DNA of 34,713 bases from an uncultured euryarchaeote (GCA_937899865.1 CALBRH010000057.1:1-34713); one strand, 5' to 3'; positions 2,347 through 13,080 are shown, numbered from the stretch's first letter. Program-made: numbers and translations. Notes: a model not told the origin generated them from the sequence alone.

Positions 2347-2420
2347 GAATTACCGTGAAACTACTCTCGTTTGAGTTAATCGCTTCAAAAATCCCCCTTA
2401 GTCGGCAAGATTTAAACTAA

Positions 2421-2604
2421 AATTTTCCAATTGAAAAATTAAATTTCTAATTGGAAATTTATTTTCCGAATAAAAACTATTTTTACCAATTTCTTGACTG
2501 TTTATAGACGCGGAAATCGTCGCCGAAGTCTTTTTCCGCGTGAAATTTTATTGTTAACCAGTTGGAAATTTGATTTTACCCACTAAATCCCCCCGTAGGG
2601 GGGA
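2421..2604. repeat. Cluster of imperfect palindromes (consensus about AAWTTTCCAATTGGAAAWTT), a 9-bp inverted repeat and a C6/G6 hairpin
   Basis: 2421-2440 aattttccaattgaaaaatt and 2441-2460 aaatttctaattggaaattt are abutting 20-mers, each palindromic with one mismatched pair. Degenerate copies lie at 2531-2549 and 2552-2571. acgcggaaa (2508-2516) pairs with tttccgcgt (2533-2541). tccccccgtagggggga lies at 2588-2604. Confidence 0.8.
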
Positions 2605-2657
2605 AAAAACGCAAAACTTCTTGAAGCCTACAACGCTGACAAGCATTTTGAGCGACT

Positions 2658-2999
2658 ATGTTACAACGTATTCTGGCAGGTCTTACCAAGACAGAAGGTG
2701 TTGAACAAGCGATGCTACTTGACGAGCGTGGTGCGCTACTTGCTTGTGTTGGTGATGAGGGTAAAACTCCTCCAGTCGATGCTGCTATTGAAGTGACCAA
2801 TATGGCTTCTGAACTTTGTTCTGCGCTTGAACTTGGAGAATTGTATGAAGTTTGGTGCGAGGGTAAGGAGCGTATGATGATCGATATTGCTCGACCAGGC
2901 CGTATAGTAGTCCTCACAGGTCGAGGCGGTCGTCTAGCAAGATGGCGACATGCTCTAGATCGTAACCGCAAGATAATTGCAACAACCCCACAGATGTGA
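2658..2999 (+). CDS. Stand-alone Roadblock/LC7 (MglB-like) domain protein
   Basis: 113 aa with the classic Roadblock opening LxxLxxxEGVxxAxLxDxxGxxL, followed by a helix and beta-strands (ELYEVWCEG, MMIDI, RIVVLT). Confidence 0.75.
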   Translation: MLQRILAGLTKTEGVEQAMLLDERGALLACVGDEGKTPPVDAAIEVTNMASELCSALELGELYEVWCEGKERMMIDIARPGRIVVLTGRGGRLARWRHALDRNRKIIATTPQM

Positions 3000-3003
3000 T
3001 ATT

Positions 3004-6000
3004 ATGTTTGATTTACCAAAAGGCATAACCGTAGAAGAAGAAATAGACGTCTCTGAAGGCGTGATTCAGCCGTTTACTCATGGAGTGATAAGCACATGGA
3101 TTGGCAAGCGAAAAACTCCAGCTGGCCATAGAATCGTTAGAGCAGGACGTGTTGTTGGTTATTTGGCTGAGAGTGAGAAAGCATCGATACTTCTTGGTGG
3201 AGCAGAGGCTAAGGCTAGATTGTTTGAAATCGAAGCAGAAGGAATGTGTCGATTTGAGGCTGAGAGTTATTCAATGGTCGGACTGGGTGCTATTGCAGAA
3301 GTGGTTCCTGAAGCATTTGAACATCCAGCAGATGCTCAAGGATTATTAGCAAGAGGCGATACAGTAGAGCGATTATTATCTCGTGATCTTTCAGTTGTGT
3401 TAGCAAAATTGGTTGAAAATGTTACAGTCAGAGGGGCTATTGCGGTAGATTCTGGAATGTTGATTGATTCAGCAGGAGAACTACCAACTGATGGCGAACA
3501 ATTGGCTAAAGAAGTTGGGGAGACCATTGTCGGTAGAGAAAAAGTCGCTAAAGGATTAGGTTTCTCAAATAGCGGCCATTGGACTTTGCATACTGGTGAT
3601 GGAGCGTTATTACTCGCTCATACAGGAGAAATTGCAATAGCCGTTTGGACTGAGGCAAATGCCAATCATACAAGGCTGGTTAATGCAGCAGTCGCTGCCT
3701 TAGAAGGAGAGATTGTTGAGGCTGCAGGCACTAGTGAGCCAATACCTGATGGTTTTGTTCTAAGAGAAGGAAAAGGTGGCGCAGATGCTGTGTTATCTAT
3801 GCTCACTGATGCGCTTGAAGAGGAAGTTACTGGACATATTCAAGCCGGAAAGTCATCTAAGGCCGTAAGTTTGTTATTGTCCAGAGGTGTTCCAGTTGGT
3901 ATTTTTGCACCAAGTGCAGAATCCTTCGAAGAAGCAGTTCTCGGTTTAACTGAAGCAAAGCGAGTAATTCGCCTACATAGATTGCCAGCAGGAACAATCC
4001 TTTCAAAGGAATCTGGCACAGTTCATGATTTTTCACTGTCATACTTCAAGGATTTATTAGTCACGGTTAGAACTCGCTCGGAAAGTCGTAGAGCAAACCT
4101 AACTCATCGTTTGAACAATTTAATCGGATTTGAAATCGGTATGGAAAATTTACGAATCGCTCGTTCAAAAGCTAAATTCTCTCAAATCACCGAAGCCGTT
4201 ACTAAAGGTCTTGACGATATTGAGGTTGCACCAGTACCAGGTATTGATGCAGGATTAAGACGTAGACTTGAATCAGCAGAAATTCGCATAGATGAGTTGG
4301 AAAAAGAAAAAACCCATCTATCGAATAAATTATCTGAATCAGAAACTTCAAGAAAAGCCGCTGAGATAAAAACTAGAGAAGCAGTTGAAACTCGTAATAT
4401 GCAAATGGAGAGTGTCGAGAATGTTAATTCAGAAATTAATTCAATGCAGGTTCAATTAGCCGAAGCAAGAAACCGTAGTGAAGATGCCGAATCGAGAGCG
4501 GAAAAACTGGTTAAGCGAGTCAATGAGTTAGAGCATCAAGTCAGCGTCAGAGCTACTGAATTGGCTAAAGCTTTGGGTGAAACAGAATCAAGTGAGAAAT
4601 TAAGACAATCGATCGAGGAAATGGCACTCAAGGAAGCGGGTCTAAATGCAGATTTAACTGATGCGAGTGAAAAATTGTCTACCATACGACAGCAAACTGA
4701 AGATGATGAAAGAAGGTTGAGGGTTTTGCAAGAACAAGTTGCAGCAACTCGAGAACGGCACGCAAGAGCCCAAGCAGAGGCTATGAAAGAAGAAGAGCGA
4801 GTCAATAAGAGCAAAACTGAACTTGAGATGCTTGAATCTGAAGCCAAGGTAGCACGGAGGCGGGCAGAAGATGAAAGATTGCGGCTAAGTACTGATGAAG
4901 CGAGATTTGCCCATATTCAAGGTGAAATGCGTCAACTGATGGAAGAGCGTAGAAATCTTTTGCGAGAGTTAGGTGACTTAAGTGCAAAGCGTGGTCATGC
5001 TGAAGGAGAGTTAACGATTTTATTGGAAAAAGCAGAAGCGTTGGCTGAGGCTCACGAAGAAGCACTAACTGACATTAATGAGGCAGAACGAATTAGAGCA
5101 AGGCTTGCTGAAGAACCTCTTGCTCAAGCCTTATTGGATGATGCATCAACATTCGAAGGGCTTGCTCCAGTATTGGAGCGTTTGGAGAGGTCTCGCAGCC
5201 TTGGATACTCAGTCACGTTGTTAGACAGAGCAGTAGAACGTGCTCTACAAGTAATTCAAAAGACAGTTGATCATGTTGCTGCGACACCTCGATACTTACT
5301 TTCAAGCGAAGTTATGGAATTATTAGAGCGTCAAGTTCCACAAACTGCTGGTGCAGTAAGAGGTCTTTCTCGTTGGTCAGTTCAACAGAGGCTCGAACAT
5401 CAATTAGGAGAAACAGTCGGCCACCTAGTAATCGATTTGGAAAGGTTACTCGAGGATTATGACCATTCAATAACTATGCTTAGAAGGTTGAGGAATGTCC
5501 TTGAACAACTAACTCGATTAGGTGCACCTCCACACGAAGTAGAGACTTTGATGTCTAATTGTAATCGTCCAGAATCTTTACCACATATTGCTCAATCAAC
5601 AAGAAAACTAATACAAAATGCTCTAGATGACATATACCTAGAATCCGACCAAAGAGATGCAGGTGAAGCAATTGCTCTCGAAGAAACCGCACGTGTTCTT
5701 GAGGAATTGATCACTCAAATCGACGCTTCCGGCTTGGCAAGTGGTTCTCCAACCGGATTGTTGTGGGACTTCCAAAGAGATGGATTATTACCGTATGAAC
5801 GAGAAGTTGTCGACCCTGCACAAAAGACTCCAGTTGATGAAGAGATGGTCAAACACATGGAATCCAATATATCAGGCGATTTGGTTGAACAGGATGAACC
5901 TCAAGTGGTTGAAGTCGATGAAGATGGTTGGGAAGTATTGGAATTACCTAGCGATGATGAACATGAAGACGAAGAAGAAGTCGAAATTGTTGAGTTACAA

Positions 6001-6147
6001 CCGATCAGTGATGATGATGAAAGAGCTGAATTAGATGCTGAATTAGCCCGGATAGATGCATCTTGGAAGCATCGCAGCGAACCATCTAAGGTATCAGATG
6101 ATGCTTTAGGAGATTTAGAATCAAAACTTTCTGAGCTAGATATCTAG
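3004..6147 (+). CDS. Large multidomain protein: DUF2226-like, Roadblock, DUF2226-like, long coiled coil, helical region, acidic tail
   Basis: Likely start is ATG 3004, 4 nt after the upstream stop. Numbering from the track ORF: aa ~10-114 (LPKG...GVIS...AGRVVGY...PEA) and ~255-345 (IPDG...TGHIQ...RGVPVGI) resemble each other; ~137-243 is Roadblock-like (VRGAIAVDSGMLIDSAG); ~425-715 is E/K/R/A-rich heptad sequence; the C-terminus is D/E-rich. No Walker A motif. Confidence 0.7.
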   Translation: MFDLPKGITVEEEIDVSEGVIQPFTHGVISTWIGKRKTPAGHRIVRAGRVVGYLAESEKASILLGGAEAKARLFEIEAEGMCRFEAESYSMVGLGAIAEVVPEAFEHPADAQGLLARGDTVERLLSRDLSVVLAKLVENVTVRGAIAVDSGMLIDSAGELPTDGEQLAKEVGETIVGREKVAKGLGFSNSGHWTLHTGDGALLLAHTGEIAIAVWTEANANHTRLVNAAVAALEGEIVEAAGTSEPIPDGFVLREGKGGADAVLSMLTDALEEEVTGHIQAGKSSKAVSLLLSRGVPVGIFAPSAESFEEAVLGLTEAKRVIRLHRLPAGTILSKESGTVHDFSLSYFKDLLVTVRTRSESRRANLTHRLNNLIGFEIGMENLRIARSKAKFSQITEAVTKGLDDIEVAPVPGIDAGLRRRLESAEIRIDELEKEKTHLSNKLSESETSRKAAEIKTREAVETRNMQMESVENVNSEINSMQVQLAEARNRSEDAESRAEKLVKRVNELEHQVSVRATELAKALGETESSEKLRQSIEEMALKEAGLNADLTDASEKLSTIRQQTEDDERRLRVLQEQVAATRERHARAQAEAMKEEERVNKSKTELEMLESEAKVARRRAEDERLRLSTDEARFAHIQGEMRQLMEERRNLLRELGDLSAKRGHAEGELTILLEKAEALAEAHEEALTDINEAERIRARLAEEPLAQALLDDASTFEGLAPVLERLERSRSLGYSVTLLDRAVERALQVIQKTVDHVAATPRYLLSSEVMELLERQVPQTAGAVRGLSRWSVQQRLEHQLGETVGHLVIDLERLLEDYDHSITMLRRLRNVLEQLTRLGAPPHEVETLMSNCNRPESLPHIAQSTRKLIQNALDDIYLESDQRDAGEAIALEETARVLEELITQIDASGLASGSPTGLLWDFQRDGLLPYEREVVDPAQKTPVDEEMVKHMESNISGDLVEQDEPQVVEVDEDGWEVLELPSDDEHEDEEEVEIVELQPISDDDERAELDAELARIDASWKHRSEPSKVSDDALGDLESKLSELDI

Positions 6148-6158
6148 GTGTGGGTCTA

Positions 6159-6407
6159 ATGACCGATAATCAGGCTACAACCCTCTTAGGACGAGATGAG
6201 GTAATTGGTAGAAAGTATCCAATTTTCTTAGAACGAATTGTGTTTGTAATAATTGTTGTAGTATTTATTTTAGGATATGAAGAAGTAAGAGATAGAACTG
6301 GTGATGGAATGATTTCTATTATCAGTACTTGGTGCTTATTTCCATTCATACTATTGTTTAGTGCTGAAATGATTGGGCGAGTCATTCAAGCGATTAATCG
6401 AGACTAA
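6159..6407 (+). CDS. Small membrane protein (2 TM), hypothetical
   Basis: Two hydrophobic segments (IVFVIIVVVFILGY; IISTWCLFPFILLFSA). AGGTG SD fits ATG 6159 (the track starts at GTG 6150). It follows the coiled-coil gene directly. Confidence 0.7.
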   Translation: MTDNQATTLLGRDEVIGRKYPIFLERIVFVIIVVVFILGYEEVRDRTGDGMISIISTWCLFPFILLFSAEMIGRVIQAINRD

Positions 6408-7639
6408 ATTTGGAAATCAACAAATTCTTTTTCATTAGTACTCTTTGTTGGGGCATCGGAATTTTTTGTTCTAAGAGAATAAGTGAATCCCCAAATTCTC
6501 TGCCATGGAATTAAGAATCTAAATAATGCCATAATAGAGAGGAACATTACTGCTGAAATTACTAATCCATAGGTTAGAGATAATTCGATTGATTCTGAAA
6601 CTTGACCTGCCCATTGGCTTCCAGTAGTATCACTTACCAAACTCAATAGAACACTATGGAATCCTAATGCAACCATAGTGGCAAGACCAGTTAGCCCAAG
6701 GAAACCAAATGTGTGAACTAAGTGTGTGTTTAGCATATTATCCATTTGAGTCACATATTCGGGGTCTCTCTTACATGATTCAGGCAATCTGAAAGCATAT
6801 TCAAGATACTTGATTACTCCAAATGCTGATTCTTGGAATACTAATATTAGAACTGCGATCAAAATCAAATCAAATTGTTCATTGGTAACTAAATCTATGC
6901 CGAAAAAGCCGATAGTTGGTTGAGATATTTGAGATTCAAGCGTAGCAAGAGCGCCACCATAATCGCCAAGTTGTGCTTTGATTAGTGGGAATGTTAGGAT
7001 AGCATGAATACCCAAAAATAGCAAAGTAAAGCCAATAGCCCAAGCAATAGATTTTCTTGATAAGCCCCATATTCCTCTTGAGCCCATGATTATTGGTAGT
7101 AAGTAAACGAACATGATTAGTAGCGACATTATCATCAGCAATGGCCACTCTAAAGTCTGTAATTCTCCATCGTCAGGTAGTCTCAAATCAAAAGAGAATA
7201 ACATTCCGGTTAACCAACCGAGTAATAATCTACCTACAAGTAGCGATATTAGTCCAATTATGAAACCTAATTTGATTCTCTGTTGGGTTTTAGGAGTTTG
7301 ATAAGCGATTAATGCCATCATTCCACCAACTCCCAAACCTATTGCTAATGGGACGAAAAATCTTGCAAGACCAGTTCTACCTTGACCGGTAAACCAATCG
7401 CCTAATGGTAGATCATCACCGATTAGTGATTCAATAGACGCAAATAGCATTGTGTGGTCAATAGAGCCTACTACATATGTTGATACAACTTCTAGATACA
7501 TGCCAACTAGTGCTGCAGTTGCAATAATTTGTAGTGTGATAATTTGCCATTGTCTTCGTAGTGTCTTGAGATGAAGAGTTCTTGCTCTAGCACTATCCAA
7601 GATTGTTACATCACCCTGAACTTGTACATCATCAGCCAA
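6404..7639 (-). CDS. Polytopic membrane protein, hypothetical
   Basis: 411 aa with about 9-10 hydrophobic segments. It starts 1 nt after the DUF58 stop, so it is probably the same operon. Confidence 0.75.
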   Translation of the reverse strand: MADDVQVQGDVTILDSARARTLHLKTLRRQWQIITLQIIATAALVGMYLEVVSTYVVGSIDHTMLFASIESLIGDDLPLGDWFTGQGRTGLARFFVPLAIGLGVGGMMALIAYQTPKTQQRIKLGFIIGLISLLVGRLLLGWLTGMLFSFDLRLPDDGELQTLEWPLLMIMSLLIMFVYLLPIIMGSRGIWGLSRKSIAWAIGFTLLFLGIHAILTFPLIKAQLGDYGGALATLESQISQPTIGFFGIDLVTNEQFDLILIAVLILVFQESAFGVIKYLEYAFRLPESCKRDPEYVTQMDNMLNTHLVHTFGFLGLTGLATMVALGFHSVLLSLVSDTTGSQWAGQVSESIELSLTYGLVISAVMFLSIMALFRFLIPWQRIWGFTYSLRTKNSDAPTKSTNEKEFVDFQI

Positions 7640-7640
7640 T

Positions 7641-8894
7641 CTAATACCCCCTAACCTGCATTAATGCTTGTGATAAATCCATGTCAGGCATCCAATCAAT
7701 AACTTGAGCACCAGATCCTGCCAGTGTAGTAAGCCTGTTTTGTCGTTCTAATTTCAAAACCTCATAAGACATTCTTGGAATTCTGCTCACCAATCTTTCG
7801 AAGTCAATACTTGATGGTGAAAGAACGGTTACTTCATGACCACGTCCCACTAAGTCTCGAACCGCAGCTGGTACAGTTCCATCACCTTCACATGAAGAAA
7901 TGACAAATACGGGGCTTCCTCTGCTGAATCTACCACTTAGTGAGTTAGTTACTGCTTGTAGTGGCATTTCCCCTTTTGCAGTAACACCAGCAAGTGCACT
8001 AAGGATTTTGAAATACTGCTTGTCTCCGGTATCTGGTGGTAGGTAAGATAATTTTTCACCATAGATGCCAAGCGCAACAGAATCTCTTCTCTTGAGGAAA
8101 AATGCAGCAAGGCTTGCTGCAGAGACAGTGCTCATCTCAAGTGGATTTTTTAGTACAGTGCCTATTCTTGAAATATCTCTTGAATCAATTAACAAATACA
8201 AGTCAGTAACCGCATCTCGACATTTTTCATTGACCATCAATTCACCAGTTCTAGCATAAGCTTTCCAATTTATATTCTTGAATGGGTCGCCTGAAACGTA
8301 TTCTCTAAGCGAATAGAATTCGGAACCTTGTCCAGGTGTTCTAAGTGTTGTAGCACCAGTGTACATCTTAGGTGTACGTGATCTAAGGAATGCCTCTTCA
8401 ACCTCTTTGATTTGTGGGAAAATAACGATGTCACTATGGTGGTCGACAAACATCTCCTCAACTCCAAGATTGAATGTATTCCTTGATCGGAGCGAAACAG
8501 GTCCAATTGAATAATGACCTCTAAGTGGGCAGCGAAGTACATATCGTATACGTGCACTTTCACCCGGACTTAGGTTCAATCGCATCTGATTAAGTCCACT
8601 GCGTAACTTCATTTCATGCGGAATATTGTCATAGACTTCGAGTAACTGAGTTTTCCTGTTTGAGCGATTGGTGATAAGTAGTTCAACATACAAATCATCA
8701 CCCTTGTACAGGTTATCTGCTGAGAGAGTTCTTTGAACTTCGACATCACCATGGCCCGAAATCCATGAATTGACAACGATGAAAGCGATAAGTGCAAGGC
8801 CAAGAATCATCATTTGATTATTTGCAATCATCATTCCAATCAGGATAAGAGCAATACCACCAGTGAAAGTAAATGCAGCCTTTCTTGTCCACAT
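7641..8894 (-). CDS. DUF58 family protein (MoxR-associated, vWA-like)
   Basis: N-terminal TM pair, Ig-like segment (LRGHYSIGP), EFYSLREYVSGDPFKNINWKAYAR signature and LLIDSRDIS (degenerate MIDAS). AAGGTGAT SD supports ATG 8894. Confidence 0.9.
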   Translation of the reverse strand: MWTRKAAFTFTGGIALILIGMMIANNQMMILGLALIAFIVVNSWISGHGDVEVQRTLSADNLYKGDDLYVELLITNRSNRKTQLLEVYDNIPHEMKLRSGLNQMRLNLSPGESARIRYVLRCPLRGHYSIGPVSLRSRNTFNLGVEEMFVDHHSDIVIFPQIKEVEEAFLRSRTPKMYTGATTLRTPGQGSEFYSLREYVSGDPFKNINWKAYARTGELMVNEKCRDAVTDLYLLIDSRDISRIGTVLKNPLEMSTVSAASLAAFFLKRRDSVALGIYGEKLSYLPPDTGDKQYFKILSALAGVTAKGEMPLQAVTNSLSGRFSRGSPVFVISSCEGDGTVPAAVRDLVGRGHEVTVLSPSSIDFERLVSRIPRMSYEVLKLERQNRLTTLAGSGAQVIDWMPDMDLSQALMQVRGY

Positions 8895-8898
8895 AGTA

Positions 8899-10509
8899 TC
8901 ACCTTCTCCCCCATGCTTTGACACGTTTGACTATTGTAACGGTTTGTTCAAGCGAGTATTTTCCAGGTTCAATGGCGAACTTTGCCAAGGTTGGATCGTT
9001 GATTAAAGCGACAAGTTCTCTTGCTGACATAGCGTGAAATTCTTCTCTTGTCAAACCATTCTGATTGCGAACTTTGGATAGGAATACTTGTCTAATCTTC
9101 TCAACTTTGGAATAATATGGATAACGATTTGCATCACCAAATCCATAGTAAATTATCGAGAATACGTGGCGCCAATTATCAGGGTCTTTCTTACGAATCA
9201 ATACTGCTTCAAATGATATGAAGAGAATTAGGAATAATACCAGCATTGCCAAACCTTCGCCGGTAAAGTATACCAAAAGGAAGTAAATTGTGTTGTAAGA
9301 ATCGGCGAGTACTGCATTTTGTGGATGTCTTGATTCATCAAAGATTACCATTGAATTTTCCGCTGGTTCAAGTCCTTCATCTTCAAGGCTAGTCATCATC
9401 GCTTCTGCAATTATATCCAATGCCCATTTTCGGTTGTCATTGGCTGGGATCTCAGTATCAGTTTCTCCATATAGTCCTTCAGCAAAGCCTGAATAATCGT
9501 AGATTGCGTTGATTAGAGGTGAACCGTCGGCAACAAAGAATACTCTTCCACCATCATCTGGATTACAAGTAGACTTTGCACATGCTTCAACACTGAGATT
9601 GAATTTACCATACAAGTCAGGAGTTTCTTCATTCTGTTCACTACTAACCCAAATTTCACCGTCACCATTGACATCAACGCTTGCTTCATTACTTGTCACA
9701 GCTCTAATAGCTAATTCAGGAAGTGGATTCTTGTTATTCGGTATTAGTTCTAAAGCAGTAATGTTGTTTAGTAGAACACGATAGGTGCCATTGTAAGAAA
9801 TTTCACCATCCTTCCAATGGTGGCTGCAAACACCAGATTCCTCTTGTGTCATTGCTTGACCATCAACCAAAGCACAAGGATGTGCACTCAATGCAGAGGA
9901 TGTATCCGCCCATCTTTCATGGGTTGACAATGTTTCAGAATCAATTTGACTACCATTCATGCTGCAAGGGGTTTCTTGAACACACATCCAGATGTAATTA
10001 TAGTTTAATTCAGTAGCATAAGTGGTATCAAACAACTGATAACCACTATACCGGACTCCAAATGCTTCAGCTATTGTTCCAGCAAAGCCATAATCCTCTA
10101 AAATAATAGCCGTACCACCATTATCAACGAATTCAACAATTGCATCTATTTCGGAAGGAGAATACCCATCTTCTGATGCAATGGTAATGAAACCATCTTC
10201 ATCAAATTGTGGCAGAGAAAGCGTATCTCGTTCAACACCAGCGACAATGTATGTTGTATTGCGGGGATCTTCGATATCTGCAAGCAGTAATGGGCTACTA
10301 ACTAGAGACCTAGTTTCAATACCCATATCTTTGATATCTTGTCTAAACGCTGACATATCATTCCAATCGTCATCATAGGCAGATAATTGGTTGGTGTTAG
10401 ATAAGTTGACAAAATTGCTTAAAATCATTATCAATAGTACGAACATAACCGACCAAAAAGCGGCTTGTAAGCCGATTCTACGGTAATTTATTTCGCGCCA
10501 TTCAACCAT
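8899..10509 (-). CDS. DUF4350-like membrane-anchored protein
   Basis: N-terminal TM, SAYDDDWNDMSAF, EFVDNGGTAIILEDYG, GRVFFVADGSPLINA, VIFDESRH and a C-terminal TM match archaeal DUF4350/GATase-like proteins. AGGTG SD supports ATG 10509. Confidence 0.7.
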   Translation of the reverse strand: MVEWREINYRRIGLQAAFWSVMFVLLIMILSNFVNLSNTNQLSAYDDDWNDMSAFRQDIKDMGIETRSLVSSPLLLADIEDPRNTTYIVAGVERDTLSLPQFDEDGFITIASEDGYSPSEIDAIVEFVDNGGTAIILEDYGFAGTIAEAFGVRYSGYQLFDTTYATELNYNYIWMCVQETPCSMNGSQIDSETLSTHERWADTSSALSAHPCALVDGQAMTQEESGVCSHHWKDGEISYNGTYRVLLNNITALELIPNNKNPLPELAIRAVTSNEASVDVNGDGEIWVSSEQNEETPDLYGKFNLSVEACAKSTCNPDDGGRVFFVADGSPLINAIYDYSGFAEGLYGETDTEIPANDNRKWALDIIAEAMMTSLEDEGLEPAENSMVIFDESRHPQNAVLADSYNTIYFLLVYFTGEGLAMLVLFLILFISFEAVLIRKKDPDNWRHVFSIIYYGFGDANRYPYYSKVEKIRQVFLSKVRNQNGLTREEFHAMSARELVALINDPTLAKFAIEPGKYSLEQTVTIVKRVKAWGRR

Positions 10510-10603
10510 AAGCACACCTACTAGAGCGTATTTCCGACACTACACGCCAACACATCAGTTTAGAATGTTGTCTATACTTGAGGATTAAATGCTCATTGAA
10601 ACA

Positions 10604-10843
10604 TCATTTTCTAAGATGTATTCGATTAGAAATTCTTGACACATCATCAATTGGAATATTCATCCTTCCATCAAGATAATTCCAAGGTAGCATTGATGGC
10701 TCGAGGTTAGCCTCAAGAATGACAACGATTTGAGTTATTGAACCAGATAATTTGTCTATGACTAAATCAGTGACTTCTCCTAATTTCTCATTGTGCGAGT
10801 CAACAACATCTAGGCCCATGACTTCCTTTGCAAAAACCGCCAT
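10604..10843 (-). CDS. Stand-alone PRC-barrel protein (CdpB-like)
   Basis: 79 aa. EVMGLDVVDSHNEKLGEVTDLVID and IPIDDVSRIS are typical PRC-barrel patterns. It starts 11 nt after the cdc48 stop, with GAGGT SD overlapping that stop. Confidence 0.85.
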   Translation of the reverse strand: MAVFAKEVMGLDVVDSHNEKLGEVTDLVIDKLSGSITQIVVILEANLEPSMLPWNYLDGRMNIPIDDVSRISNRIHLRK

Positions 10844-10854
10844 GATAAACTACC

Positions 10855-13080
10855 TCACATCGTTTCTATTCCATGACTGAAATCCTTGGTTCGTTTGATA
10901 TTCGACATTCCTGAAGTTAATCTTGTTTCCATCTTTTGATAATATTCTAACATTTCAGGAGTCACAGTTGGTCTTACTCTACCAATCGCTTCTTCAAAGT
11001 GACTTTTCGTGACTTTCTTCTTGTTGGCTCTCATACAGATAAGTGCAGCTTCTCTGCATACCGCTTCAATATCTGCACCAGTAAATCCATCCAAACCTTT
11101 CAGTACGTCTTTAAGTGAGAATTTAGACAATGGCATTCCTTTACAGTGTATATTGAAAATCGCTTCTCTTGCACCAACATCTGGTGGAGGAACATGCAAT
11201 ACTCGCTCGAATCTTCCGCTTCGAAGAAGAGCGGGGTCAATCATTTCGGGCCTATTTGTGGCGGCTACAACGATTACTCCGTCAATTGATTCAACTCCAT
11301 CCATACTTGCTAACAGTTGATTTACAACTCGATTGGAAACATCACTACCCTCGCTTGAATTAGAAGATCGCATATTTGCAATCGATTCAAATTCGTCAAG
11401 GAATATTATTGATGGAGAGGATTGCTTGGCTTTCTTGAAAATTTCTCTCACAGCTCGCTCAGATTCTCCAACCCATTTTGAAATCATTTCAGGTCCTTTG
11501 ATACTGATAAAATTCGCTTGTGCTTCATTAGCAATCGCTTTGGCAAGTAGGGTTTTTCCAGTTCCTGGGGCGCCAAACATAACGATGCCTCGTGGTGGCT
11601 TAATACCAAAGTGGTCGAACAACTCAGGTTTGGTTAATGGCCATTCAACCGATTCTTTGAGTCTACTCTTGACATCTTCTAAGCCACCAATTTCATCCCA
11701 GGTGACTTCAGGAACTTCAACATAAATTTCTCTAAGAGCAGATGGTTCGATATCTTTGATTGCTTGGTGAAAGTCTTCCATACAGACTTCCATTTTTTCC
11801 AATACTTCTGGAGGAATAGTATCTTCTTCGAGGTCAATTTCTGGTAGGTATCTGCGCAGTGCTTTCATTGCAGCCTCTCTAACAAGTGCGGCTAAATCTG
11901 CGCCAACAAAGCCGTAGGTATTGTCAAGTATCCAAGTAATATCGAAATCTTCTGACATCGGCATTTGTCGAGTGTGAACATCCATTATCTCGCTTCTTCC
12001 ATCACGATCAGGAACGCCAATTTCGATTTCTCTATCAAATCTTCCAGGTCTTCTAAGTGCAGGATCAAGTGCATCACGACGGTTGGTGGCTCCAATTACC
12101 ACGACATTATCTCGGCCTTGCATACCATCCATTAGAGTAAGCATTTGAGCAACAACTCTACGTTCTACTTCGCCGCTTACATCTTCTCGCTTTGGACAAA
12201 TCGAATCAATTTCATCGATGAAAACAATGGCTGGTGCGTTATCACTTGCATCATCAAAGATTTCACGTAGTTGCTTTTCAGATTCTCCGTAATACTTACT
12301 GATAATCTCCGGTCCATTGATACTCTTAAAATGTGCATTTGTTTCAGTTGCAACCGCTTTAGCAATCATGGTTTTTCCAGTCCCAGGTGGGCCATGTAGC
12401 AGAACTCCTTTCGGTGGGTCAATACCTAATCTTCTAAACAGCTCAGGATGTTTAAGTGGTAATTCTATCATTTCTCTAACCTTTTGTAATTGTTGCCCAA
12501 TACCACCGACATCTTCGTAAGTTATTCCTTCAGATTGCCCGATATCATCATCATCAATTGCCTCATCCTTGATTACAATATCAGTATCGTTGGTTACTTT
12601 TACAACTCCCTTAGGAGTAGTTTGTACAACTGCAAATGGTAATGCTTCAGCAAACAATGTCATACCAGGAATGAAAATTCTATCTCCTTGAACCACGGGT
12701 CTGTTTTGCAACCCACGACGAGCAAAGCCCTCAATACCAGGTCCGAACTTGACTTTTTGTTTGTTTGCCATGACTGGAGAAATAACCAATTTCTTGCATT
12801 CTTCAGCCTCAACTTTTGACACGGTAACTTTGTCCCTTAAGCTAACACCAGCATTTTTTCTAATGATACCATCTATTCTAATGATGGCCATTTTGTTATC
12901 CTCAGGTCTGCTACGCCAATAAATGGCAGCAGTAGAGCGCTTTTCGCCCTTGATTAGAACTATGTCTCCAGGTTTCAAGTCCAATCCTGAATCGCCAGAT
13001 ATTCGGGCTCTTCCGTGACCTACATCTGAAGGAATTGATTTTTCCACAGTGAGTGATATGGCTTCATTTTGTCCTGACAT
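10855..13080 (-). CDS. cdc48: Cdc48/VCP (VAT) double-ring AAA+ ATPase
   Basis: N-domain ([21 protein letters not shown]), two Walker A motifs ([16 protein letters not shown]), Walker B (FIDEID, FLDEFE), pore loops KYYG/KWVG and arginine fingers RRPGRFD/LRSGRFE. Confidence 0.97.

Follow-up and report, generated by a model that had tools for sequence, protein, structure and literature searches.

We describe here a pair of adjacent genes on a contig of an uncultured euryarchaeote (GCA_937899865.1, CALBRH010000057.1:1-34713; this whole stretch of 34,713 nucleotides is the window referred to below), which probably specifies a hitherto unstudied, GTPase-free Roadblock scaffold built around a fixed-length rod. 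The genome belongs to Candidatus Poseidoniaceae (Marine Group II a), spans 2.01 Mb and is 91% complete. The first gene encodes a small, free Roadblock protein; the second encodes a 1047-aa protein in which another Roadblock domain is embedded between two small alpha/beta domains, and which continues through a helical neck into a putative coiled-coil rod, a helical bundle and an acidic tail. Structure prediction and comparison among orthologues furnish the folds, the fixed length of the coil, the pattern of conservation, the gene order, the taxonomic range and the failure to find a Ras-like GTPase; with these in hand, we see roughly an even chance that the two products form a Poseidoniales-specific, GTPase-free and non-enzymatic scaffold, i.e., a spacer or tether of fixed length. 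Roadblock domains are ancient adaptors that are nearly always found together with small GTPases, as in the MglB, Ragulator and Asgard systems; the word "Roadblock" does not occur in the leading Marine Group II papers that were checked.

The pair is followed by a third gene for a small protein with two transmembrane (2-TM) segments. The three open reading frames (ORFs) lie on the same strand at 2658-2999, 3004-6147 and 6159-6407, with spacings of 4 nt and then 11 nt, the same gaps that a preliminary description of the window, made without database searches, had given. Their features, with the basis of each, are as follows (AF2, AlphaFold2; the domains of the head are designated D1, D2 and D3):

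2658..2999, plus strand: free Roadblock/LC7 protein, 113 aa (Pfam Robl_LC7 and orthologue profile against solved Roadblocks)
3004..3378, plus strand: large protein, D1, aa 1-125, predicted alpha/beta domain (AF2 model)
3379..3708, plus strand: large protein, D2, aa 126-235, embedded domain of predicted Roadblock fold (AF2 model, VIA-align, Foldseek)
3724..4038, plus strand: large protein, D3, aa 241-345, second predicted alpha/beta domain (AF2 model)
4039..4239, plus strand: large protein, predicted helical neck from head to coiled coil, aa 346-412 (AF2 model)
4240..5115, plus strand: large protein, putative coiled-coil rod, aa 413-704, 292 aa (composition, absence of proline, weak family matches)
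5116..5808, plus strand: large protein, predicted C-terminal helical bundle, aa 705-935 (AF2 model, conservation)
5809..6147, plus strand: large protein, variable acidic tail, aa 936-1047 (composition, conserved motifs)
6159..6407, plus strand: small 2-TM protein, 82 aa, 11 nt downstream of the rod gene (hydrophobic segments)

Two Roadblock units encoded side by side

The 113-aa product of the first gene passes the Pfam Robl_LC7 model (PF03259) marginally, with 23.5 bits against a cut-off of 23, and is recovered at 22.3 bits when that model is run against the six-frame translation of the genome. A profile of 11 of its orthologues, drawn from three families, matches a Thorarchaeota Roadblock (7f8m) at 2.8e-9, CvnB5 of Streptomyces (3leq) at 1e-6 and the Prometheoarchaeum Roadblock 7yh1 at 5e-5, in keeping with the preliminary description, which had read this gene as a free Roadblock. 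The protein is fast-evolving, with 19-26% identity between families, and its counterparts, of about 100-115 aa, have in common an ML.R.L start and W.E and GR..H motifs. When its family profile was run against this 91%-complete genome, it brought up no additional Roadblock.

The product of the second gene, 1047 aa from the ATG at 3004, begins with MFxLPxG, a start kept in all orthologues. Its residues 1-395 were modeled with AF2 on an eleven-sequence alignment (mean predicted local distance difference test, pLDDT, 82; predicted template-modeling score, pTM, 0.73). In this model D2 is built of helix 129-137, strands 142-149 and 152-158, helix 164-185, strands 192-197, 200-207 and 210-216, and helix 222-233, which is the element order of a Roadblock: helix, two strands, helix, three strands, helix. 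By VIA-align, D2 superposes on an Asgard Roadblock (9jue_D; Z 12.8, root mean square deviation 2.6, 105 aligned residues), on MglB of Myxococcus (6hjm_A; Z 12.5), on 7yh1_D (Z 12.2) and on LAMTOR2/p14 (2zl1_B; Z 12.1), these four superpositions spanning 105-110 aligned residues; Foldseek gives an E of about 1e-5 with a template-modeling (TM) score by target of 0.75. On the sequence side, Robl_LC7 matches D2 in 3 of the 11 orthologues (best 6.6e-5) and not in this genome's own protein, and the D2 profile A3 matches CvnB5 at E 1.2e-3. At the level of the model, a Roadblock fold is confirmed for aa 126-235; the preliminary description had recognized the embedded domain, but had set it (137-243) about ten residues too far downstream. 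Comparison of D2 with the free Roadblock family by hhalign returns E 0.017 with a probability of 2.6%, and hence the two Roadblock units are not tied together by sequence.

On either side of D2 the model places, with confidence, an alpha/beta domain. D1 (about 26-100 in the model, pLDDT mostly 85-90) has four strands, a helix, a strand and a helix, and D3 (about 251-326 in the model, pLDDT about 85-94) has a strand, a helix, three strands, a helix and a strand. Of the earlier claim that two similar domains flank the Roadblock, the flanking domains stand, whereas their mutual similarity is weak (hhalign E 0.087), the paired strand-strand-helix-strand elements agreeing with the AF2 model. Neither domain has a Pfam match, and PDB searches with the domain profiles gave nothing meaningful. 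An HMMER search with the head profile against 1.84 billion representatives returned 75 matches, made up of orthologues (1020-1089 aa), fragments and three or four weak Roadblock-type proteins, with no relatives of D1 or D3 outside the family. Fold searches with the whole head were dominated by the Roadblock domain, and the best match in the ESM Atlas (TM 0.39-0.42, to a 363-aa archaeal cluster without an assigned family) is too weak to use. D1 and D3 each have the same language-model neighbors, namely unnamed archaeal clusters (0.87-0.89), a cluster with DUF2226 in 47% of its members (0.84) and clusters with PatA_N in 14-19% of theirs (0.81-0.83), all of which lie below 0.9, where chance matches are common.

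The label "DUF2226-like" that the preliminary description had attached to these domains is not supported: DUF2226 (PF09987) has no match at E<=10 in the N-terminal regions of 11 orthologues and none at E<=1 in the genome, and the literature searched contains no mention of DUF2226. Across about 250 Thermoplasmatota, the single sub-cut-off match to DUF2226 is an NAD-dependent DNA ligase. Likewise, PATAN/DUF4388 (PF14332) matches neither the 11 orthologues, nor the genome (E<=1), nor the about 250 Thermoplasmatota. The head is linked to the rod by the neck, with AF2 helices at 345-354 and 360-389 and a length of 62-69 aa among orthologues. A Walker-A-like string, GHIQAGKS (aa 277-284; 3832-3855), is a chance match: the model puts it within a beta strand, and conservation of its lysine fails, the residue being a glutamine in close relatives and missing in other families.

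Controlled complex predictions of the head (residues 1-395) with the free Roadblock scored 0.64, 0.44 and 0.37 (median 0.44) against 0.00 for all three controls, with at least 74% of the contacts common to the runs and a partner pLDDT of at least 79; the verdict of this procedure is weak support. The mark is reached by 58 of the 80 solved complexes used for calibration, only 7 of them at 0.60 or under, and by 2 of the 110 mismatched pairs. The pass may reflect mere likeness to solved Roadblock dimers, because such dimers are well represented among solved structures. As modeled, the free Roadblock may bind the head of the large protein. To that extent the heterodimer of free and embedded Roadblocks envisaged in the preliminary description is weakly supported, the procedure giving no interface that would place the free protein on the embedded domain.

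A putative rod with a coil of constant length, and a conserved distal bundle

Residues 413-704 contain no proline over 292 aa and at most three prolines plus glycines per 50 aa, and they give weak matches, all far below cut-off, to SMC, Rad50, crescentin-rod, LmuB and JetC models. The call of a coiled coil comes from this composition, the proline-free stretch and the weak matches of SMC/Rad50/crescentin type. All 21 orthologues compared, which reach down to 34% identity, have a coil of exactly 292 aa, whereas D1, D2, D3, neck and tail each differ in length among them. A continuous two-stranded coil of 292 residues would measure roughly 43 nm.

The best conserved part of the large protein lies beyond the coil, at aa 705-935 (74% mean column identity, mean top-residue frequency 0.70, length 230-232 aa). 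Its AF2 model is all-helical (pLDDT 77) and has no informative fold match in the PDB: the best Foldseek E is 1.3, and the best VIA Z of 9.3 (94 residues, root mean square deviation 3.3) sits below the informative level for helical bundles. The tail (39 D/E against 8 K/R over aa 940-1047) ranges from 86 to 154 aa among orthologues. It carries a conserved internal motif, ELAxLDxxW/A, and at the extreme C-terminus [LI]xxLExxLxxL[DE] followed by a hydrophobic residue and the terminal carboxylate, the last ~13 residues being kept, with variants, in 20 of 20 full-length orthologues. In these parts the preliminary description had been accurate, having foreseen a coiled coil of ~290 aa, a helical domain and a very acidic tail with two short motifs. 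A pairing of an ESCRT-III-type MIM tail with a Vps4-type MIT domain was rejected: the Arg or Lys position of the MIM (LxxRLxxL) is not conserved among the orthologues' tails, and MIT (PF04212) has no match at E<=0.1 in the genome. Hidden Markov model searches detected no catalytic family in any part of the large protein.

Distribution and loss of the module

A profile of the C-terminal domain recovers the rod in 84 of 86 Poseidoniaceae genomes (the two without a match being 85-86% complete), in the one genome of a second family and in 15 of the 63 Thalassarchaeaceae genomes. Neither the sister family of the class nor the other Thermoplasmatota sampled yielded it; two nominal hits outside Poseidoniales have E 2e-3 to 6e-3 over about 90 residues. 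By these profile searches, the family is found only in Poseidoniales. The module always occupies one chromosomal locus, beside ttuA, and its sequence identity follows taxonomy. At every locus examined, in all three families of the order, a short Roadblock-like ORF stands immediately upstream of the large gene, so that the synteny of these two genes anticipated in the preliminary description is found throughout.

Within Thalassarchaeaceae the split is clean by genus, the module being present in six genera (g3, g4, g9, g11, g17 and g142) and absent from seven. The genera without it have genomes of 1.2-1.7 Mb, smaller by 0.4-0.7 Mb. In a TtuA tree, those sampled form one clade (support 97/98), and hence their absence is most simply explained by one loss. 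In one Thalassarchaeaceae genome (G330) the rod gene is present twice with identical scores (C4:2421-3215 and C8:10146-10940), a duplication or an assembly redundancy.

The search for a GTPase and other partners

No Ras (PF00071), Roc (PF08477) or Arf (PF00025) GTPase reaches the cut-off in the 91%-complete genome: Ras gives one sub-cut-off match, in a 415-aa ORF (18.5 bits against 21.6), and Roc and Arf give zero matches. There is no GTPase among the neighboring genes and no NTPase gene linked to the module at any locus. Given that no Ras, Roc or Arf GTPase was found, the module would act without a classical partner or with an unrelated one, in line with the preliminary description, which had supposed that any GTPase acts in trans or that there is none.

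The preliminary description had taken the module for a candidate polarity or division system and had named archaellum genes and FtsZ among those to compare with it; the module tracks neither archaellin nor the copy number of tubulin-family genes. A link to the archaellum was rejected because archaellin is missing from three genera that carry the module (g3, g4 and g17) and present in two that do not (g10 and g144); tubulin-family (FtsZ/CetZ) genes number about three in genera with and without the module and show no co-variation.

The small membrane protein

The third gene's product has two hydrophobic segments, at about aa 22-40 and 50-72, as the preliminary description had it, and a conserved N-terminal motif, TTL(I/M)GRxExxGxxYPxxLER. 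In four genomes of the genera that lack both Roadblock and rod, ttuA and the gene for a 411-aa protein (the neighbor on the other side of the module) adjoin, with an 88-96-aa, two-segment ORF of the same orientation between them. Its N-terminal motif, LPGRxExxGKxxSPWxER, is related to that of the third gene. The retained ORFs are:

L040:1821-2273, minus strand: two-segment ORF, 150 aa from the first possible start
L041:7889-8170, plus strand: two-segment ORF
L042:1790-2080, minus strand: two-segment ORF
L043:1821-2087, minus strand: two-segment ORF

The 2-TM gene is not specific to the Roadblock-rod module. The idea that the 2-TM protein anchors the scaffold, which the preliminary description had put forward, is weakened because the gene persists in genera without Roadblock and rod. 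In the one genome of the second family (G027; L019:6191-7576), the rod gene and the gene for the small membrane protein are separated by an additional gene of 461 aa.

A proposed scaffold and what weighs against it

In the model that we favor, the head, a Roadblock held between two small alpha/beta domains, would stand at the N-terminal end of a rod that we infer to be dimeric. The small Roadblock protein, encoded 4 nt upstream, would bind this head, most likely pairing with or stacking on the embedded Roadblock as happens in MglB, MglB-MglC and Ragulator. At the far end of the rod, the helical bundle and the terminal peptide would recruit a second partner. Bridging two cellular sites, probably at the cell envelope, the assembly would then act as a spacer or tether of fixed length and not as an enzyme. 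The fixed length of the coil favors a spacer or ruler over a polymer. A membrane or envelope location is plausible, and does not rest on the 2-TM gene.

Several points weigh against this model. The predicted binding of the free Roadblock is weak and assigns no interface, and in a parallel rod dimer the embedded Roadblocks could pair with each other, leaving the free protein some other role. The coiled coil is read from composition, the absence of proline and weak matches. With the 2-TM gene persisting where the Roadblock-rod pair is gone, the link to the membrane is unproven; further, a whole clade lives without the module, which is hence dispensable. Finally, these archaea are uncultured and the evidence is wholly computational.

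Alternative explanations

Among the alternatives, the one with the most in its favor, which we nevertheless hold to be unlikely, is that the module positions or regulates a type-IV-pilus-like machine, with D1 and D3 being distant PATAN or DUF2226-type domains and the rod placing or spacing pilus motors at the membrane. Besides the archaellum, this genome has two type-IV-pilus-like loci, one with a 412-aa T2SSE ATPase (C63:134609-135844; L048:6610-7848) and the other with a 532-aa one (on C1; L049:6399-7997); both ATPases are so assigned because each adjoins two T2SSF platform genes. The T2SSE (PilB-type) ATPases of Thalassarchaeaceae fall into three classes, of which the ~580-aa (ArlI-type) class follows archaellin, and the ~415-aa and ~520-aa classes occur in exactly the six genera that bear the module and are absent from the other seven. 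Used as a query across the whole order, this genome's 412-aa ATPase is recovered, family by family, in 86 of 86, 1 of 1 and 15 of 63 genomes, the last 15 being the same as those with the module. This co-distribution raises the odds of a functional link only slightly: it carries little weight because it traces to one loss, in a clade whose genomes have shrunk by several hundred kilobases (0.4-0.7 Mb) with the joint disappearance of many unrelated genes. Further, the module was never adjacent to pilus genes in the loci examined.

The language-model neighbors of D1 and D3 noted above point the same way, to DUF2226 and PatA_N, and in cyanobacteria PatA-type regulators use their PATAN domains to bind PilB1, the pilus motor, and PilC, the platform protein (10.1101/2021.06.11.447907). 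The weak PATAN lead for D1 and D3 deserves testing because of this binding; against it, the scores all fall below 0.9, and the DUF4388 and DUF2226 models, which find nothing in the protein, its 11 orthologues or the genome, give no credible match in the about 250 Thermoplasmatota. A bolder form of the idea, in which a GTPase-free Roadblock pair on a 43-nm "molecular ruler" positions or spaces type-IV-pilus-like machines or another envelope complex, with PATAN-like modules docking on the pilus motor, we regard as distinctly unlikely.

The large protein could instead be a cytoskeletal filament of the crescentin/CCRP kind, acting in shape or division with its assembly controlled by the Roadblock pair. 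The long coil has a weak likeness to the crescentin rod (E 3.6e-4, 20.1 bits) and to SMC/Rad50 coils, and Roadblock proteins are reported to control polarity in Myxococcus (PMC9481161, PMC2910265). However, the crescentin rod model (PF19220) has a cut-off of 100 bits, and a coil of exactly conserved length, bounded by a structured domain on either side, is better explained by a discrete rod than by a polymer. The constancy of tubulin-family genes, with or without the module, and its dispensability in one clade also speak against a filament, and we consider it improbable.

Under a further alternative, the Roadblock pair would be a GTPase-activating protein, a guanine nucleotide exchange factor or a platform for an NTPase encoded elsewhere and outside the Ras/Arf/Roc families, such as a SIMIBI protein, a GTPase of translation-factor type or a secretion ATPase. 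The Roadblock superfamily has been implicated in NTPase regulation, and among 749 MglB homologues 328 are "orphans" that lack a coupled MglA and are all uncharacterized (PMC4316618); to this may be added the sub-cut-off Ras match in the 415-aa ORF. Yet the genome has no Ras, Roc or Arf member at cut-off, no locus links an NTPase gene to the module, and a pure GTPase-activating role leaves the fixed-length rod and the conserved distal domain unexplained, so that we give this account a slim chance.

An SMC-like chromosome organizer or anti-phage defense protein, as might be read from matches of PADLOC LmuB and JetC to aa 358-704 (E 2e-4 to 5e-3) and of NCBIfam SMC and Rad50 models to the same stretch, is highly improbable and largely refuted by the absence of an NTPase head: the matches do not extend beyond the coil and reach just 13-31 bits where the cut-offs are 567-1087, a Walker B is lacking, the sole Walker-A-like string is the non-conserved GHIQAGKS, and the locus is fixed beside ttuA with identity that follows taxonomy, unlike a mobile defense island. 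The PADLOC result is coiled-coil noise only.

Relationship to known Roadblock systems

The proposed fixed-length scaffold is best compared with four known kinds of system. In its fold it resembles MglB and MglC of Myxococcus xanthus and Thermus thermophilus (6hjm, 6h5b, 3t1r, 7cy1), D2 reaching Z 12.5 to MglB and 7.3 to MglC; as there, the genes for two distinct Roadblock units lie together, and dimers of such units would be expected to organize other proteins in space. Unlike the MglB system, no MglA-like GTPase was found at the locus or in the genome, and no RomR, RomX or RomY-like partners were identified here; further, one Roadblock of the pair forms part of a 1047-aa rod protein, where an extra domain stands on each side of it. 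The stand-alone Roadblocks of Asgard archaea (7f8m, 7yh1, 9jue, 9jq8) are the best sequence and fold matches of both units. They consist of a single small domain and are mostly considered in connection with small GTPases, whereas in the present lineage, in which no such GTPase was found, one of the units has become part of a long coiled-coil protein.

Ragulator (LAMTOR1-5 with the C-terminal Roadblocks of the Rags) is likewise a membrane scaffold of paired Roadblocks, and D2 reaches Z 12.1 to LAMTOR2/p14 and 10.3-10.7 to HBXIP/LAMTOR5. However, Ragulator holds the Rag GTPases and is anchored by lipidated LAMTOR1, whereas we see here neither a GTPase nor a LAMTOR1-like wrap, and instead a 292-residue coiled coil and an unmatched helical bundle. 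PATAN (DUF4388)/DUF2226 proteins offer a similar arrangement, with small alpha/beta modules beside a Roadblock, and PATAN-Roadblock fusions were reportedly described by Makarova et al. in 2006. D1 and D3 are linked to them as sub-threshold language-model neighbors; in contrast, they have no Pfam match, the large protein has no receiver domain, and its coil and bundle are without a counterpart there.

What sets the Poseidoniales module apart is that it offers a clean orphan case under strong conservation, with a pair of Roadblock units, a genome in which no Ras-like GTPase was found, and a rod whose coil length is invariant across the order. Should it act as a spacer or positioning device, it would reveal the role of Roadblock pairs in the absence of a GTPase, and would give a first handle on the organization of the cell envelope in Marine Group II, a group of abundant, uncultured and poorly understood archaea. 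A true ruler would amount to a spatial-organization system without a described archaeal counterpart, in the most abundant planktonic archaea of the surface ocean; if it is merely a lineage-specific structural protein, its interest is local.

Gene neighborhood

The three genes are flanked on one side by the divergent ttuA, which encodes a PP-loop 2-thiouridine synthetase, and on the other by a convergent block of genes, whose order from the operon outward is the 411-aa unknown, DUF58, DUF4350, a 79-aa ORF and Cdc48. The flanking features of the window are:

2347..2657, plus strand: AT-rich intergenic stretch of 311 bp separating the Roadblock gene from ttuA, presumed to hold the operon's promoter (sequence reading)
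6404-13080, minus strand: convergent block of Cdc48, 79-aa ORF, DUF4350, DUF58 and 411-aa unknown (neighborhood reading)

The DUF58 and 411-aa genes adjoin the locus order-wide, with or without the Roadblock module. In two small-genome Thalassarchaeaceae, the DUF58 orthologues contain in-frame TGA codons, two in one (G039:C1:461759-463021) and one in the other (G035:C4:72357-73616); when read through these codons, they show 64-68% identity over their full length.

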